Origin: a phage
Sequence record: PV730300.1
Direction: 5' to 3' (one strand)
Length of the DNA stretch: 64,000 nucleotides
In this document: positions 17,601 through 25,895 of the stretch, one piece after another
Numbering within the stretch: the first letter of the stretch is position 1
Layout: the number at the start of each line of letters is the position of its first letter
Made by a program: the position numbers and the translations under genes
The notes under the pieces: model-generated
The model's input: only the letters and a program-made list of their open reading frames with translations
Told to the model about the DNA's origin: nothing
Database searches by the model: none

Positions 17601-18005
17601 TTATTGAAGTTTAAGTGAACCACGAAGACGTTTCTCTTGCTGATCACGGATATATTGTGGAACCTCGTGAATTGAATCATTACCGTGCCTATTTTCAACA
17701 ACTAAAGAGATAACTTGATAACCAAACTCTTCAGCAAGAGCTAGGTAAGGTTTAAGTTCTTTCTCTGTGGTTGAAGTATTAGAAACAATAATCTTGTTAA
17801 GATTAGATGCCATAGCATCACGAACAATACCCTGACACCATGCGTGTGCTTTACCTACATTTTCTGGCTTCCAATCGTAAACACCACTTTCTGTGTAATG
17901 ATATTGATCTGCCTCACAGATAGGCCAATAACCTTCAGAAATAATTTCTGCTACTGTAGATTTACCAGCACCTGAAACGCCACGTAAAATGATAAGTTGT
18001 TTCAT
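17601..18005 (-). CDS. P-loop kinase, putative polynucleotide 5'-kinase
   Basis: Walker A GVSGAGKST in a 134-aa protein; adjacent to RNA ligase and phosphoesterase genes. Confidence 0.5.
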   Translation of the reverse strand: MKQLIILRGVSGAGKSTVAEIISEGYWPICEADQYHYTESGVYDWKPENVGKAHAWCQGIVRDAMASNLNKIIVSNTSTTEKELKPYLALAEEFGYQVISLVVENRHGNDSIHEVPQYIRDQQEKRLRGSLKLQ

Positions 18006-18938
18006 TTATCCTCCAAAAAAGTTTTCGATTTTTTCACGTCGCTCTTGCTGATTTAAAGCAGCCCATTGAGTCTTCGTAAAATTATTTCGAATCCATTCTA
18101 ACAAAGCGTAATATTCTTCGTCAACCATTTGCTTGGCATTTTTTGGATTATCCCAAATCAGATCCCACTTTTTATCTCCACCACGCATAAGAAACTTCTT
18201 AGTAAGATAGTGTGGTGATTTAATTTTTAAAAGTAAGTTGAACGGATAGTTTGTTTCACGAACTACAAACCCTTCGTGTTTACAATGTTTAGACATTTCA
18301 ACCACATCTGAAAATTTAATCATCGGATAAACTTCAGGACGTTTAAATTTTGTAATAGATGCAATCCCATCAAGCACACCTTCAGGTAACATAAAACTTG
18401 TCCCATCAGGATTTTGAATTCTGGCACCAATTAAGTATGCACCTGGTTCTTCTTCGACAATATGCGGATCAGAAGGATCACAGATTTCAAACAGGAAAGT
18501 TGCTTTTGCACTCTCTGCCCATTTGATGAAATGTTCTATGTCATCGCACTCTGAAACAATATGATTCTTTGCAATACTTGCAAAATCTGATTCAAGGCTT
18601 CCTGTTGTCGATACAATAAGTTGACCTTTATATACACCTACAGAGGCCATAAAACCATTTACTTTACGAACCACATCTACAAGTTCATCCGCTGGTAGAT
18701 CTGTGCCATTCTCAAAACGATTAAAAATCTTAGTGAAAGGCCAAATAACAACATTGTCATCAGCATCAACAACGATTCCGCGACATTCTAGAAGACGAGA
18801 ATCAATGCTCCATAAGTTATCCCAGAAAACTTTGTTCTTATACTTAAGAACAGATAGACCAGAATACTCTCCTTCTTTATATGTTTTCTTATGAACTAAA
18901 CCTTTTTCAACCAAATCGTCGCAATTAAATTTAGTCAC
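18006..18938 (-). CDS. RNA ligase-like covalent nucleotidyltransferase
   Basis: Motif I KVNGF (KxNG), motif IV EGFVVR, motif V LLKIKS in the correct order. Confidence 0.6.
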   Translation of the reverse strand: MTKFNCDDLVEKGLVHKKTYKEGEYSGLSVLKYKNKVFWDNLWSIDSRLLECRGIVVDADDNVVIWPFTKIFNRFENGTDLPADELVDVVRKVNGFMASVGVYKGQLIVSTTGSLESDFASIAKNHIVSECDDIEHFIKWAESAKATFLFEICDPSDPHIVEEEPGAYLIGARIQNPDGTSFMLPEGVLDGIASITKFKRPEVYPMIKFSDVVEMSKHCKHEGFVVRETNYPFNLLLKIKSPHYLTKKFLMRGGDKKWDLIWDNPKNAKQMVDEEYYALLEWIRNNFTKTQWAALNQQERREKIENFFGG

Positions 18939-18939
18939 A

Positions 18940-19491
18940 TTACTCTCCTTTGATTATTTTGTGATGGTCTACAGTCACGATATCTCGTTTACTCATCATA
19001 GAAATTATCTCATCAAAATGCAAGATTTTTCCGTGTGCATCCCAACCCACATCTAACATTTTACCATAAGCTTCATCAGGGAAAGATCCGTGGGAATGCC
19101 CGTGTAGCATGATTGATCCACGACCTTGTTTATTCCAGGAGGCTATAGGGTAATGGCTTAAGACGAAGAACAGCTTCTGATATTTCACTTCGTCATAATA
19201 CACCACTTCTCCATACTCTGCAAGCACTTCTCGGTGTTTGCTGTAGTCATGGTTCCCAACACAGTAGGTGATATCTCCTTGGAGACGGGAAGCAATTTTA
19301 CGGGTATCTTCTTCAGTTCCGAAACAGAAGTCGCCCAAATGCCACATCTTAACACCAGGAGTAGTAGCACATTTGTTCCATGCTTCGATCAAGGCTTCTG
19401 TCATGTGGTCCATATCTTCCCACGGACGATATTCAGGAGCAAACTCTCGAATACGTTTATGCATAAAATGCAAATCGCTTGTAATAAACAT
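18940..19491 (-). CDS. calcineurin-like metallophosphoesterase
   Basis: DLHF, GDFCFG, GNHD, LHGHSHG metallophosphoesterase signature blocks. Confidence 0.7.
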   Translation of the reverse strand: MFITSDLHFMHKRIREFAPEYRPWEDMDHMTEALIEAWNKCATTPGVKMWHLGDFCFGTEEDTRKIASRLQGDITYCVGNHDYSKHREVLAEYGEVVYYDEVKYQKLFFVLSHYPIASWNKQGRGSIMLHGHSHGSFPDEAYGKMLDVGWDAHGKILHFDEIISMMSKRDIVTVDHHKIIKGE

Positions 19492-23730: not shown

Positions 23731-23760
23731 TTGACAAACGTATCCTTCATATGTTAGGAT
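23731..23760 (+). promoter_or_regulatory. sigma70-like promoter at the head of the tRNA/RNA cluster
   Basis: CTATTGACA motif at 23731-23736, then about 17 nt and a TGTTAGGAT-type -10. Confidence 0.45.
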
Positions 23761-23969: not shown

Positions 23970-24044
23970 GGCCCTGTAGCTCAATGGGAGAGCTGTCGGC
24001 TCATAACCGATAGGTAGCTGGATCGAAACCAGCCAGGGCCACCA
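23970..24044 (+). tRNA. tRNA-Met (anticodon CAT)
   Basis: Manual cloverleaf: acceptor GGCCCTG/CAGGGCC, anticodon loop CTCATAA, CCA encoded. Confidence 0.7.
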
Positions 24045-24046
24045 AC

Positions 24047-24121
24047 GTCTTTATGGTGTAATGGATAGCACAGGAGTCTTCTAAACTCTTAGTCAAGGTT
24101 CGATTCCTTGTAAAGACACCA
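24047..24121 (+). tRNA. tRNA-Arg (anticodon TCT)
   Basis: Acceptor GTCTTTA/TAAAGAC, anticodon loop CTTCTAA, T arm CAAGG-TTCGATT-CCTTG. Confidence 0.65.
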
Positions 24122-24122
24122 G

Positions 24123-24306
24123 AACATTTTAACATGAATTAGCTCAAGTGATTTGAACCCACTACTGATCATGGTGGCAGAGAATGAGGCAAGTATGTCA
24201 GACATTATAAACAAAGGCCACGGTTATATTAGAAGACATAAATGCTCGAAGAGCACCGTTCGTTGAGAACGGGGGTTGGTGGAGTCACCATTCATGGTAA
24301 AATGTT
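24123..24306 (+). ncRNA. candidate structured small RNA 2
   Basis: 16-nt terminal helix AACATTTTAACATGAA (24123-24138) / TTCATGGTAAAATGTT (24291-24306), 15 of 16 paired, enclosing several hairpins. Confidence 0.35.
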
Positions 24307-24317
24307 TTAAAAAACTA

Positions 24318-24347
24318 TTGACAACTAACATTATTTTATGTTAGATT
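24318..24347 (+). promoter_or_regulatory. sigma70-like promoter (internal to the tRNA cluster)
   Basis: AAACTATTGACA at 24318-24323, 17 nt, TGTTAGATT-type -10. Confidence 0.45.
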
Positions 24348-24355
24348 ATAAGTAT

Positions 24356-24446
24356 GGAAGGGCAAATCGACGTGGCGACGAAAACGGTCTTGAAAACCGC
24401 CGAGCTTGAAAGAGCCTTGGGAGTTCGACTCTCCCTCCTTCCGCCA
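24356..24446 (+). tRNA. tRNA-Ser (anticodon TGA), class II
   Basis: Acceptor GGAAGGG/TCCTTCC, anticodon loop CTTGAAA, long variable arm, CCA encoded. Confidence 0.7.
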
Positions 24447-24451
24447 GATTA

Positions 24452-24537
24452 GGTAGATTGGTGAAATGGTAGCCACGACAGTTTGCTAAACTGTAGTCGG
24501 AAACGGCGTGTAGGTTCGAGTCCTACATCTACCGCCA
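24452..24537 (+). tRNA. tRNA-Ser (anticodon GCT), class II
   Basis: Acceptor GGTAGAT/ATCTACC, anticodon loop TTGCTAA, long variable arm. Confidence 0.7.
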
Positions 24538-24667
24538 AGTTCTTTTTAATATAGCTTACTTTAATAGAGTAAACTTTCGGCAGATGGCCCCCACCATCTT
24601 ACCGATAACTCATAGTTAGTGGTGTGAACACTGGCTATTTTAAAAAGAATTTAAATATTAGTATTTA

Positions 24668-24755
24668 GGTGAGTTAATTCCGTAGGGGTAGCGGGGCAGA
24701 CTGTAAATCTGTTATCATTGCGATTCGGGTGGTTCGACTCCATCACTCACCACCA
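24668..24755 (+). tRNA. tRNA-Tyr (anticodon GTA), class II
   Basis: Acceptor GGTGAGT/ACTCACC, anticodon loop CTGTAAA. Confidence 0.7.
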
Positions 24756-24761
24756 AATTAA

Positions 24762-24847
24762 GATGAGTTGGCTGAATGGTTTAAGCGGCGGACTGTTAAT
24801 CCGTGTTCGAAAGAACGATATAGGTTCAAATCCTATACTCATCGCCA
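24762..24847 (+). tRNA. class II tRNA, isotype uncertain (anticodon loop reads CTGTTAA, i.e. GTT)
   Basis: Acceptor GATGAGT/ACTCATC, T arm ATAGG-TTCAAAT-CCTAT, about 15-nt variable arm; anticodon assignment ambiguous by hand. Confidence 0.45.
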
Positions 24848-24937
24848 GAATTATGGACTTGTAGAGTTAAGGTAAACCCCCAGTCGCCAAGAGGCTTCTG
24901 AAATTGCAGGTATCGAATCCTGCCGAGTCCCAGCTTT

Positions 24938-25012
24938 GCTCCTATAGTATAATGGCTATTACAACGGTTTTGTAATCCGTGGATCTCTGTTCGATTCAGA
25001 GTGGGAGCACCA
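24938..25012 (+). tRNA. tRNA-Thr (anticodon TGT)
   Basis: Acceptor GCTCCTA/TGGGAGC, anticodon loop TTTGTAA, T arm CTCTG-TTCGATT-CAGAG. Confidence 0.6.
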
Positions 25013-25287
25013 ACACAACATTAAGAGCACTGTGATTGATCGTCGTATCCTGTGCACAAGGTCTGTTCGAAAGACAGTGTTCTTAGTATTGTGTTGATCA
25101 CACAAAAAGAGTTACCTGAAACTTGACCGGAGTAGGGTTGGATGGGGCAAAAGAAGAAGCGGCTCTCCCATCGACAGCAACGAAGAATAATATTTGACTT
25201 TGGTTTTGTATTATTTTAAGTTAGCTTACCGAACGTAGGGCTAGTCACCCAATGGGATACTCGTCACTGTCCCACTCAATAAAACTA

Positions 25288-25317
25288 TTGACAACCAATA
25301 GTAAAATGTAGTATAGT
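25288..25317 (+). promoter_or_regulatory. sigma70-like promoter (internal to the tRNA cluster)
   Basis: AAACTATTGACA at 25288-25293, about 18 nt, TATAGT. Confidence 0.45.
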
Positions 25318-25328
25318 AAAGATGTAGG

Positions 25329-25403
25329 GCGTTCTTGGTGTAGCGGTAGCATTCCGTCCTTCCAAGTCGGCGGCACGAGTTCGATCCTCGTAGAACGCTC
25401 CAA
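25329..25403 (+). tRNA. tRNA-Gly (anticodon TCC)
   Basis: Acceptor GCGTTCT/AGAACGC, anticodon loop CTTCCAA, T arm ACGAG-TTCGATC-CTCGT. Confidence 0.7.
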
Positions 25404-25500
25404 ATTATTTAATAAAGGGTTGCCAGAAAACTTTCTCTTTTACTCATGGTTTTCTCCTTCTCTCACACCTCTTCTGGTTGCCCTTCATTAAATGATTTAT

Positions 25501-25576
25501 TGGTTTGTAGTGTAGTCCGGTAGCACACGACACTTTGACTGTCGTAGGTTTGGTTCAAATCCAGACAGACCAGCCA
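25501..25576 (+). tRNA. tRNA-Gln (anticodon TTG)
   Basis: Anticodon stem CGACA/TGTCG, loop CTTTGAC, T loop TTCAAAT. Confidence 0.7.
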
Positions 25577-25581
25577 TATAA

Positions 25582-25658
25582 CGGAATTTAGCTCAGTTTG
25601 GTAGAGCATACGCTTTGGGAGCGTAGGGTCGCAGGTTCGAATCCTGCAATTCCGACCA
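25582..25658 (+). tRNA. tRNA-Pro (anticodon TGG)
   Basis: Acceptor CGGAATT/AATTCCG, D stem GCTC/GAGC, anticodon loop TTTGGGA, T arm CGCAGG-TTCGAAT-CCTGC. Confidence 0.8.
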
Positions 25659-25664
25659 ATTTAA

Positions 25665-25738
25665 TGTTTCGTAGTTCAATGGTAGAACCCACGACTGATA
25701 ATCGTGAGACACAAGTTCGATTCTTGTCGAAACAACCA
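25665..25738 (+). tRNA. tRNA-Ile (anticodon GAT)
   Basis: Acceptor TGTTTCG/CGAAACA, anticodon stem CACGA/TCGTG, loop CTGATAA. Confidence 0.75.
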
Positions 25739-25740
25739 GT

Positions 25741-25810
25741 TTCCCGTTAGACTTACAGGATAAGAGTTCCACAGCTTATTGTGATGCTGGTTCGAATCCA
25801 GCACGGGATA
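25741..25810 (+). tRNA. putative tRNA, anticodon not assignable by hand
   Basis: Canonical T arm GCTGG-TTCGAAT-CCAGC and pairing acceptor ends, but no clean anticodon arm could be folded. Confidence 0.3.
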
Positions 25811-25816
25811 CCTAAT

Positions 25817-25895
25817 AGCGGGATAGAGGAGTCTGGTCGTCCTCGCCAGTTTCATATGCTGGAGATCATCGGTTCGAATCCGATTCCCGCCTCCA
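25817..25895 (+). tRNA. tRNA-Met (anticodon CAT), possibly initiator-like or Ile2-type
   Basis: Anticodon loop TTCATAT, T arm ATCGG-TTCGAAT-CCGAT, A1-C72 mismatch at the top of the acceptor stem. Confidence 0.6.

Follow-up and report, generated by a model that had tools for sequence, protein, structure and literature searches.

A tRNA-Asn(GUU) gene with a long variable arm in a phAPEC8-like coliphage belongs to a widespread, covarying family

Can a tRNA built with the long variable arm of the leucine, serine and tyrosine species genuinely carry the anticodon of asparagine? The question is raised by an 86-nucleotide (nt) gene at positions 24762-24847 of PV730300.1, a 64,000-nt stretch of DNA (hereafter, the window) from a phAPEC8-like coliphage (Phapecoctavirus, Stephanstirmvirinae), in which the 3 kb around the gene are 99.5% identical to the Escherichia phages nieznany and tuntematon. 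According to the reviews, only tRNA-Leu, tRNA-Ser, bacterial tRNA-Tyr and tRNA-Sec have long variable arms (PMC9976931, PMC7609411). The initial annotation of this locus had wavered between a misfolded Leu or Ser tRNA and a genuinely atypical one.

The first part of the answer comes from the fold. ARAGORN calls a tRNA-Asn (gtt) at exactly 24762-24847, with the anticodon starting at gene position 34; the Rfam model RF00005 matches 24762-24844 with 62.0 bits (E 2.3e-12, gathering score 29), its alignment treating the extra 12-13 nt as an insertion in the variable region; and the unconstrained minimum-free-energy (MFE) structure given by RNAfold is the identical five-arm cloverleaf. A tRNA-Asn-GTT is also annotated in public records of near-identical phages, from the depositors' own tRNAscan-SE runs. 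The description from which we started – 86 nt, a normal acceptor stem and T arm, and a 15-nt variable arm – agrees with ARAGORN, Rfam, the MFE fold and the coordinates, and its loop CUGUUAA with anticodon GUU is what ARAGORN, Rfam, tRNAscan-SE and RNAfold all return. The parts of the gene, all on the + strand, are as follows.

24762-24847, + strand: whole tRNA gene, class II-shaped with a long arm and with anticodon GTT; 86 nt, counting the encoded CCA (ARAGORN, Rfam, MFE fold)
24762-24768 and 24837-24843, + strand: acceptor stem GATGAGT/ACTCATC, 7 base pairs (bp)
24771-24786, + strand: D arm GCTG-AATGGTTT-AAGC, 3 bp plus G13.A22
24788-24804, + strand: anticodon stem-loop, with the stem GCGGA/TCCGT
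24793-24799, + strand: anticodon loop CTGTTAA, 7 nt, with U33 and A37
24795-24797, + strand: anticodon GTT, reading AAC and AAU
24805-24819, + strand: variable arm, 15 nt, made of a 4-bp stem GTTC/GAAC, a GAAA tetraloop and then three unpaired 3' bases, GAT
24820-24836, + strand: T arm ATAGG-TTCAAAT-CCTAT
24844, + strand: discriminator base G73, a determinant for asparaginyl-tRNA synthetase (AsnRS) and an antideterminant for the leucyl and tyrosyl enzymes, LeuRS and TyrRS (PMC9976931)
24845-24847, + strand: encoded CCA

These parts are those expected of an RF00005 tRNA (7-bp acceptor stem, 5-bp anticodon stem, 7-nt loop with U33 and a purine at 37, 5-bp T stem and a GTTCRANYC-type loop), and they are also those of class II architecture, with a variable stem-loop of at least 10 nt and a 3-bp D stem with a non-Watson-Crick 13:22, here G13.A22. 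The 15-nt helical arm sets the gene apart from class I, in which all described tRNA-Asn have a variable loop of 4-5 nt. Its acceptor/T configuration is 7/5, rather than the 8/4, 9/3 or 8/5 of allo-tRNAs and tRNA-Sec-like forms, and its GUU in a 7-nt loop is neither a stop-codon anticodon nor part of an expanded loop, as would mark a suppressor or recoding tRNA.

It might nevertheless be a Leu, Ser or Tyr tRNA that has been misread, either through a shifted anticodon stem or as a recent point mutant of the neighbouring tRNA-Tyr (GUA to GUU) or tRNA-Ser (GCU to GUU). Each of these mutations takes a single substitution, Tyr-GTA lies 6 nt upstream with Ser-GCT in the same cluster, and the geometry of the arm is Tyr-like. 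However, neither ARAGORN, Rfam, RNAfold nor a check of the coordinates finds in this gene an alternative register that gives a 7-nt loop with U33, or one that gives a Leu or Ser anticodon; the discriminator is G73, not A73; and GUU is conserved across phage families. The identities of the D arm and the anticodon stem-loop also point elsewhere: they are 9/21 and 14/17 to the phage's own Tyr gene and 13/19 and 10/17 to its own Ser-GCT, as against 15/19 and 17/17 to the class I tRNA-Asn of Salmonella phage Maynard (and, for the D arm, 15/21 to the tRNA-Asn of T5). A misread Leu, Ser or Tyr tRNA is thus most improbable and effectively refuted: the 'misfold' half of the initial alternative falls for want of a Leu or Ser register – the standard Leu or Ser anticodon that would have overturned the call was returned neither by ARAGORN, Rfam and RNAfold nor by the depositors' tRNAscan-SE – while the 'atypical' half stands, with GUU in a canonical loop of a five-arm cloverleaf. 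The gene is a genuine GUU tRNA with an atypical pairing of body and anticodon. An origin by duplication of the adjacent tRNA-Tyr was considered separately and is not supported, as 108 viral loci revealed no enrichment of Tyr neighbours and no sequence affinity, the similarity of long-arm Asn to the same phage's Tyr, Ser or Leu genes (0.55-0.57) being the same as to all isotypes.

Nor is the gene a one-off: within a widespread, covarying family it is unremarkable. When the 86-nt gene was compared with 50,697 phage records by sensitive BLAST, 716 records matched, and a spread of these was fetched. Long-arm GUU tRNAs of 82-86 nt occur in Justusliebigvirus, in rV5-like Mydovirus and Seunavirus, in Epseptimavirus, Novosibvirus and Tequintavirus (AKFV33, SP15, Bas26) and in T4-like Klebsiella and Enterobacter phages (Straboviridae), and every BLAST-found homologue, across four phage lineages, retains GUU. 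The version in Maynard, alike in D arm and anticodon arm, is a class I tRNA of 75 nt, and the T5 record, read directly, gives a class I tRNA-Asn of 78 nt. In 5,426 complete Escherichia coli genomes BLAST detected no full-length copy, and at best a chance 35-nt match in yobD; the gene is therefore not one of the E. coli host or its prophages.

The structure itself is maintained, as seen when 15 homologues, drawn from different genera of phages, are aligned with MAFFT and shuffles (500) and slid pairing partners serve as controls. Over the cloverleaf and the variable helix, 97.6% of cells are paired, compared with 72.5% in the shuffles, none of which reaches the observed value, and 31-46% with slid partners; changes on both sides are seen in 20 of the 25 pairs. 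In the variable helix all four pairs have changed on both sides, with 98.3% of cells paired, and its stem appears in versions as different as GTTC/GAAC, GAAC/GTTC, GAGC/GCTC, ATCC/GGAT and GTCA/TGAC. Column 13-23 of the D arm is unpaired in 6 of the 15. The tRNA structure, variable arm included, is kept by covariation far beyond chance.

Further afield, a pattern that admits only long-arm GUU tRNAs, ACTGTTAAT N17-27 GGTTCRANNCC, was found at no fewer than 120 loci (at least 120) in IMG/VR and at at least 120 in GTDB species genomes, and among the matches listed ARAGORN confirmed at least 105 viral and at least 44 genomic tRNA-Asn of 79-90 nt. Family statistics were drawn from the 144 unique long-arm GUU tRNAs from both sources among these listed matches: 139 have seven perfect acceptor pairs and 137 have G73, while the first pair is U1-A72 in 108 and, as in the window gene, G1-C72 in 35. 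Their variable regions span 10-20 nt, mostly as GNRA-capped hairpins, and fold with a mean of -3.5 kcal/mol, compared with -0.66 +/- 0.08 for shuffles. When the gap of the pattern was widened to N9-27 for an unbiased sample of 120 viral GUU-tRNA loci in IMG/VR, 11 (~9%) proved long-armed, and among the type I isotypes next to them long forms were very rare. The bacterial matches lie mostly in arrays densely packed with tRNA genes (9-36 per 8 kb); in several Solirubrobacterales, a singleton long-arm tRNA-Asn stands among ordinary metabolic genes without a tRNA array. The long-arm tRNA-Asn(GUU) family is thus widespread, mostly on phages and mobile elements.

Three side observations concern the outlying members. 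The chromosomal singletons of Solirubrobacterales and related Actinomycetota are near-identical and 83-85 nt long, and their flanks are conserved (a GT28-type glycosyltransferase, a short-chain dehydrogenase and a helix-turn-helix protein). Many long-arm tRNA-Asn from outside the enterobacterial phages join an Asn-type U1-A72/G73 acceptor end to the D arm GTGGCGGAATGGTAGACGC, which we take to be essentially the D arm of tRNA-Leu; this could reflect either a chimeric origin or convergence forced by the class II core. A truncated relative in Proteus phage phiP4-3 (GGGTAGTTGGCTGAGTGGTTTAAGCGGCAGACCATTAATCTGT...) has the anticodon loop CCATTAA and no T arm after it, and is probably a decayed copy.

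L066 5621-5705, L075 7197-7280, L104 2536-2620 and L106 2550-2632: singletons of Solirubrobacterales and related Actinomycetota
L107 5998-6082, L110 2570-2654 and L116 2020-2104: further singletons of this type
L048 1978-2058, L037 3976-4058 and L026 5709-5792: examples of the D arm GTGGCGGAATGGTAGACGC
L011 121-175: truncated relative in Proteus phage phiP4-3

Which amino acid would such a tRNA carry? The bacterial asparagine identity set, G73 with G34 U35 U36 (and A37), can be transplanted into tRNA-Lys (Giege and Eriani 2023, PMC9976931); the same review gives A73 with G34 U35 for tyrosine, A73 with tertiary elements for leucine, and G73, C72, G2-C71, R4-Y69, C11-G24, G30-C40 and a large variable region for serine, with G73 as an antideterminant for LeuRS and TyrRS, and C2-G71 for the seryl enzyme, SerRS. 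The window gene has the full published AsnRS set. Like E. coli tRNA-Asn(GUU) (asnT/U/V/W), whose reference sequence is found at 100% identity in 5,425 genomes, it reads AAC and AAU and has G26, G73, a canonical T loop and the same anticodon stem-loop (24788-24804, 17/17 identical). It differs from the E. coli and class I phage tRNA-Asn in its 15-nt helical arm in place of a 5-nt loop, in its class II-style D stem and in G1-C72/A2-U71 in place of U1-A72/C2-G71; U1-A72, typical of bacterial tRNA-Asn, is a determinant of the amidotransferase route rather than of AsnRS.

Leucine and tyrosine identity are excluded because of G73. A73, needed by both LeuRS and TyrRS, is present in 71 of 71 Leu tRNAs of the sampled loci and in nearly every Tyr; beyond that, GUU is no Leu anticodon. 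With bacterial tRNA-Tyr(GUA) the gene shares G34 U35, a short variable stem (3-4 bp in Tyr) followed by three unpaired 3' bases and, often, a cluster, but it has U36 rather than the A36 of the GUA anticodon and shows no sequence affinity to its own Tyr gene. As regards demand, the 39 open reading frames (ORFs) of the window contain 838 Asn codons (58 per 1000, at a GC content of 39%), and the gene is the cluster's sole Asn tRNA. The complete Asn set, the identical anticodon stem-loop, the D arm, G73, the geometry of the arm and codon demand all point to a tRNA that decodes AAC/AAU and that the host AsnRS most likely charges with asparagine. The arm would then be tolerated by AsnRS, EF-Tu and the ribosome, and the basic role of the gene would be to supply Asn-tRNA for an A+T-rich, Asn-rich phage proteome. 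E. coli translation accepts engineered long-arm tRNAs of Ala, Tyr or His identity (Mukai 2020, PMC7590224).

Several points weigh against charging with asparagine. Class II synthetases such as AsnRS approach the tRNA from the side of the variable region, so tolerance of the arm is not self-evident, and reportedly, in work by Himeno and colleagues in 1990, adding 2 nt to the variable stem of tRNA-Tyr was enough for some serine acceptance. No aminoacylation, expression or modification data on any long-arm tRNA-Asn were found in the literature. The G1-C72 subfamily of enterobacterial phages, to which the window gene belongs, has five of six SerRS determinants, as many as typical genuine Ser tRNAs. 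Finally, in body-only profile hidden Markov models (arm removed, loop masked) for Asn, Ser, Leu and Tyr, the window gene scored best on Ser (29.1 versus 22.2 bits), although the positive control, the phage's own Ser-GCT, failed by scoring best on Leu, and the family as a whole split into Asn 35, Ser 23 and Tyr 23.

These points bear directly on the idea that the tRNA is wholly or partly serylated by the host SerRS, which ignores anticodons – placing Ser at Asn codons in a form of mistranslation or recoding reminiscent of allo-tRNAs and anticodon-mutant tRNA-Ser. A long arm and G73 are the main SerRS determinants (PMC9976931, PMC7609411, PMC7590224), the gene has G73, C72, R4-Y69, C11-G24 and G30-C40, and the arm of the phage's own Ser-GCT is likewise merely 15 nt long with a 4-bp stem; the body of the gene also scored best on the Ser profile, albeit with a failed control. 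What is missing is the sixth sequence determinant, G2-C71, in place of which the gene has A2-U71; in E. coli tRNA-Ser this pair is said to be absolutely conserved (PMC9976931), and 71 of 77 genuine Ser tRNAs of the same loci have G2-C71. The arm, moreover, has the geometry of the Tyr arms in these loci (short stem, three unpaired 3' bases) and not that of Ser arms, which usually have a 5-7-bp stem and about one unpaired 3' base. Most of the wider family bears the same arm yet lacks C72 (109 of 144) and has the anti-SerRS pair C2-G71 (76 of 144). The anticodon stem-loop is kept identical to that of host tRNA-Asn, for which SerRS would have no need, GUU is retained by all BLAST-found homologues, and substantial Asn-to-Ser substitution at 838 codons would be costly. 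Serylation is, in our judgement, decidedly unlikely.

Alternatively, the gene might have no role in translation at all: it might occupy a tRNA-binding defence protein as a decoy or sponge, serve as a processing signal in a polycistronic tRNA transcript, or be a decaying pseudogene. Over-expressed viral tRNAs as competitive inhibitors of the nuclease AriB are a possibility raised by the authors of the work on the PARIS defence system (PMC12409363); the cluster does contain several clearly non-canonical tRNA-like elements, and the neighbouring Tyr and Met genes are marked pseudo in one public record. Against this stand the compensatory changes that keep each of the five helices, the acceptor stem with its seven perfect pairs among them, and the conservation of G73, U33, A37, the T loop and the encoded CCA; a decoy would need neither a full AsnRS identity set nor a perfect acceptor end, and an Asn-rich phage has no second Asn tRNA in its cluster. 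We therefore hold a non-translational role to be very unlikely.

Why, then, an arm? The most concrete lead is offered by defences that cut tRNAs. AriB of PARIS depletes E. coli tRNA-Lys, tRNA-Thr and tRNA-Asn(GUU), cutting the last between positions 40 and 41 (U36AAUC|C41); cells are rescued by variant tRNAs of T5, and an AF3 model places the AriB dimer as a bridge between C40-A41 and D-loop U16-U17 (all PMC12409363). Like the T5 tRNA-Asn, -Lys and -Thr variants that neutralise PARIS (PMC11464382, PMC12409363), the window gene is a phage copy of a tRNA cut by a defence system. The sequence of the AriB cut site is unchanged with respect to host tRNA-Asn, so that what differs nearby is the arm, with further differences in the acceptor stem and the D arm; the variable arm emerges at position 44, on the same face and three nucleotides from the 40|41 cut. 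T5 tRNA-Asn is a class I tRNA that escapes, as far as known, through anticodon-stem substitutions, whereas the window gene has no substitution there and only the arm.

The arm may therefore be imagined as altering the shape of the tRNA on the face used by such nucleases: a helix added between the 3' strand of the anticodon stem and the D loop could block an AriB-type nuclease and make the replacement tRNA-Asn unreadable to it, while the anticodon stem-loop needed by AsnRS, the Tgt and t6A enzymes and the ribosome would be left untouched, and would stay at its best for charging, modification and decoding. Escape would then come through shape, as an alternative to the point mutations used by T5, and the long-arm Lys, His, Thr and Ile-UAU tRNAs that are scattered through these arrays might be using the same trick. 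Several facts tell against an arm that shields. The tRNA-Asn with which T5 evades PARIS is class I, Maynard has a class I tRNA-Asn whose anticodon stem-loop is identical to that of the host, and the long-arm tRNA-Asn of SP15 has been used only as a control against PrrC170, with no rescue. The rescue by T5 was itself considered as a test of the long-arm form and rejected, its tRNA-Asn being the 78-nt class I version. The link between arm and nuclease is circumstantial; that the arm's shape lets the tRNA escape PARIS AriB and similar tRNA-cutting defences is a speculative possibility, more doubtful than probable, and the broader proposal – that long-arm tRNA-Asn is an unrecognised further class II species of bacteria and viruses, with the arm as a counter-defence device against anticodon-arm nucleases – is tentative and on balance unlikely.

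About 5 kb from the gene lie three adjacent genes that count among the circumstantial points in favour of a shielding arm.

17601-19491, - strand: P-loop kinase (AAA_33, weak polynucleotide-kinase PHROG), T4 Rnl1-family RNA ligase (PF09511; PHROG 562) and phosphoesterase (PHROG 547)

A kinase, a phosphoesterase and an Rnl1-type ligase are the components of the T4-style pathway for repairing broken tRNAs, and these genes look like a split Pnkp plus Rnl1 tRNA-repair module, of the kind used by T4 against the anticodon nuclease PrrC.

Set against other tRNAs with long arms, the gene resembles bacterial tRNA-Ser in its arm, G73, C72, C11-G24, G30-C40 and R4-Y69, but differs in lacking G2-C71, in its shorter arm with three rather than one unpaired 3' bases, and in its Asn anticodon and anticodon stem-loop. 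With allo-tRNAs and the engineered long-V-arm tRNAs that SerRS rejects, it shares a long arm joined to an anticodon or identity outside Leu, Ser and Tyr (PMC5389517, PMC7590224); allo-tRNAs, however, differ in their acceptor/T configuration (8/4 or 9/3, as opposed to 7/5) and in being of Ser or Ala identity, as opposed to the Asn set. No description of a long-arm tRNA-Asn was found in the accessible literature, including the main reviews of tRNA identity and non-canonical tRNAs and the papers on phage tRNAs in defence, although an older account in a subscription journal is possible; the PARIS specificity paper does not contain the word 'variable' (PMC12409363). The long-arm tRNA-Asn is thus apparently an undescribed architectural variant. 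Hundreds of GenBank records carry such genes, uncommented, under the plain label 'tRNA-Asn', so the feature has been overlooked.

A natural and widespread Asn tRNA with a long arm breaks the Leu/Ser/Tyr/Sec rule, and it raises the questions of how the class IIb AsnRS accepts the arm and how SerRS rejects a G73 long-arm tRNA with most of the Ser determinants. It would offer synthetic biology a natural SerRS-avoiding long-arm scaffold, and specialists in tRNA and phage defence – for whom this class is relevant – a testable tie between tRNA shape and escape from tRNA-cutting defences, in a family present in experimental phages (the T5-like SP15 and Bas26, and rV5-like, phAPEC8-like and T4-like Klebsiella phages).

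The surrounding cluster has its own peculiarities. In order, it comprises Met/Ile2-CAT, Arg-TCT, Ser-TGA, Ser-GCT, Tyr-GTA, Asn-GTT, an RNA3-like element, Thr-TGT, Gly-TCC, Gln-TTG, Pro-TGG, Ile-GAT, a tRNA-like element and Met-CAT, with ten tRNAs called by ARAGORN.

23970-25895, + strand: tRNA cluster (ARAGORN, Rfam, public annotations)
24318-24347, + strand: sigma-70-like promoter TTGACA-18-TAGATT, TG extended (consensus scan)
23731-23760, 24318-24347 and 25288-25317, + strand: near-consensus TTGACA-18-TAnnnT sites, each after CTATTGACAA
24356-24446, + strand: tRNA-Ser(TGA), not called by ARAGORN; in Rfam it matches the tRNA-Sec model best, with 37.4 bits (below the threshold of 47)
24668-24755, + strand: tRNA-Tyr(GTA), not called by ARAGORN (Rfam tRNA, 39 bits)
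24855-24935, + strand: RNA3-like element (homology to T5 rna3)
25741-25813, + strand: tRNA-like element between Ile-GAT and Met-CAT
26011-26039, + strand: intrinsic-terminator-like hairpin and T run downstream of the cluster (a terminator is annotated in the relative MZ726793)

The promoter at 24318-24347 probably drives the Ser-Ser-Tyr-Asn-RNA3-like-Thr sub-cluster, which we offer as a lead, the total of promoter-like sites in the consensus scan not being above shuffle expectation. Three such sites subdivide the cluster, and long non-tRNA spacers (24122-24355, 24538-24667 and 25013-25328) lie between the sub-clusters, where T5 has annotated 'stable RNAs'.

Two neighbours had also been noted for tRNA-like ends around non-canonical middles, and both do fold with an acceptor-like stem, a T arm and an irregular middle, neither reaching any tRNA model. 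The first, 24855-24935, is homologous to the T5 misc_RNA rna3 – a 'putative tRNA-like RNA' directly 3' of T5 tRNA-Asn – and to an element after tRNA-Asn in Justusliebigvirus alia. They share the motif TGTAGAGTTAA-GTAAACC and a T-arm-like hairpin with compensatory changes, and the fold, which lacks canonical D and anticodon arms, has an acceptor-like stem of 7 bp and a T loop of 8 nt. The element accompanies tRNA-Asn in three phage groups, and relatives of T5 have the long-arm form at the equivalent locus, beside the same element. The second, 25741-25813, has a 6-bp acceptor-like stem, a perfect T arm GCTGG-TTCGAAT-CCAGC and, in its irregular middle, an 'anticodon' loop of 6 or 8 nt; a comparison with the Ile-Met spacer of T5 (an annotated 27-aa ORF, T5.057) gave no convincing homology.

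Two of the tRNAs proper are also odd. The D region of tRNA-Ser(TGA), CAAATCGACGTGGCGACGAAA, resembles that of T5 tRNA-Ser2(GGA), CAAATAGACTGGCGACTAAA, and the gene is possibly related to the non-canonical phage tRNA-Ser forms of Mukai et al. 2017. The tRNA-Tyr(GTA) just upstream of the long-arm gene has the D region TAATTCCGTAGGGGTAGCGGG and is a 'tRNA-Pseudo-GTA' in one public record.

Long variable regions are found in arrays of other kinds too. In Bacteroidota, tandem tRNA-Asn arrays mix 75-nt copies with copies of 84-97 nt, the long ones having a perfect palindrome in the variable region (e.g. TCCCGATAGCTATCGGGA), and many isolated 3' halves of the long genes lie elsewhere. A mobile palindromic insert or integration-site duplicates would fit this pattern, and the palindromic arm appears distinct from the GNRA-capped arm of the phages. 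In phage and mobile arrays, normally class I isotypes with long variable regions also occur, in particular tRNA-Ile(UAU), tRNA-Lys and tRNA-His.

L068 3113-3692, L101 4684-5431, L098 1514-1707 and L125 287-901: Bacteroidota arrays
L016, L019-L021, L030-L032, L038 and L039: Bacteroidota partial copies
L266, L306, L338 and L340: long Ile-tat, 91-92 nt
L027 1693-1780, L037 5331-5420, L099 2648-2831, L121 4423-4510 and L340: long Lys, 87-91 nt
L005: long Lys, annotated as 87 nt
L118 2013-2103 and L124 580-670: long His, 91 nt

Among loci selected for a long-arm Asn, long forms account for 9 of 56 Thr, 5 of 38 Trp and 9 of 73 Met tRNAs, compared with 0 of 49, 0 of 19 and 1 of 41 in the unbiased sample.

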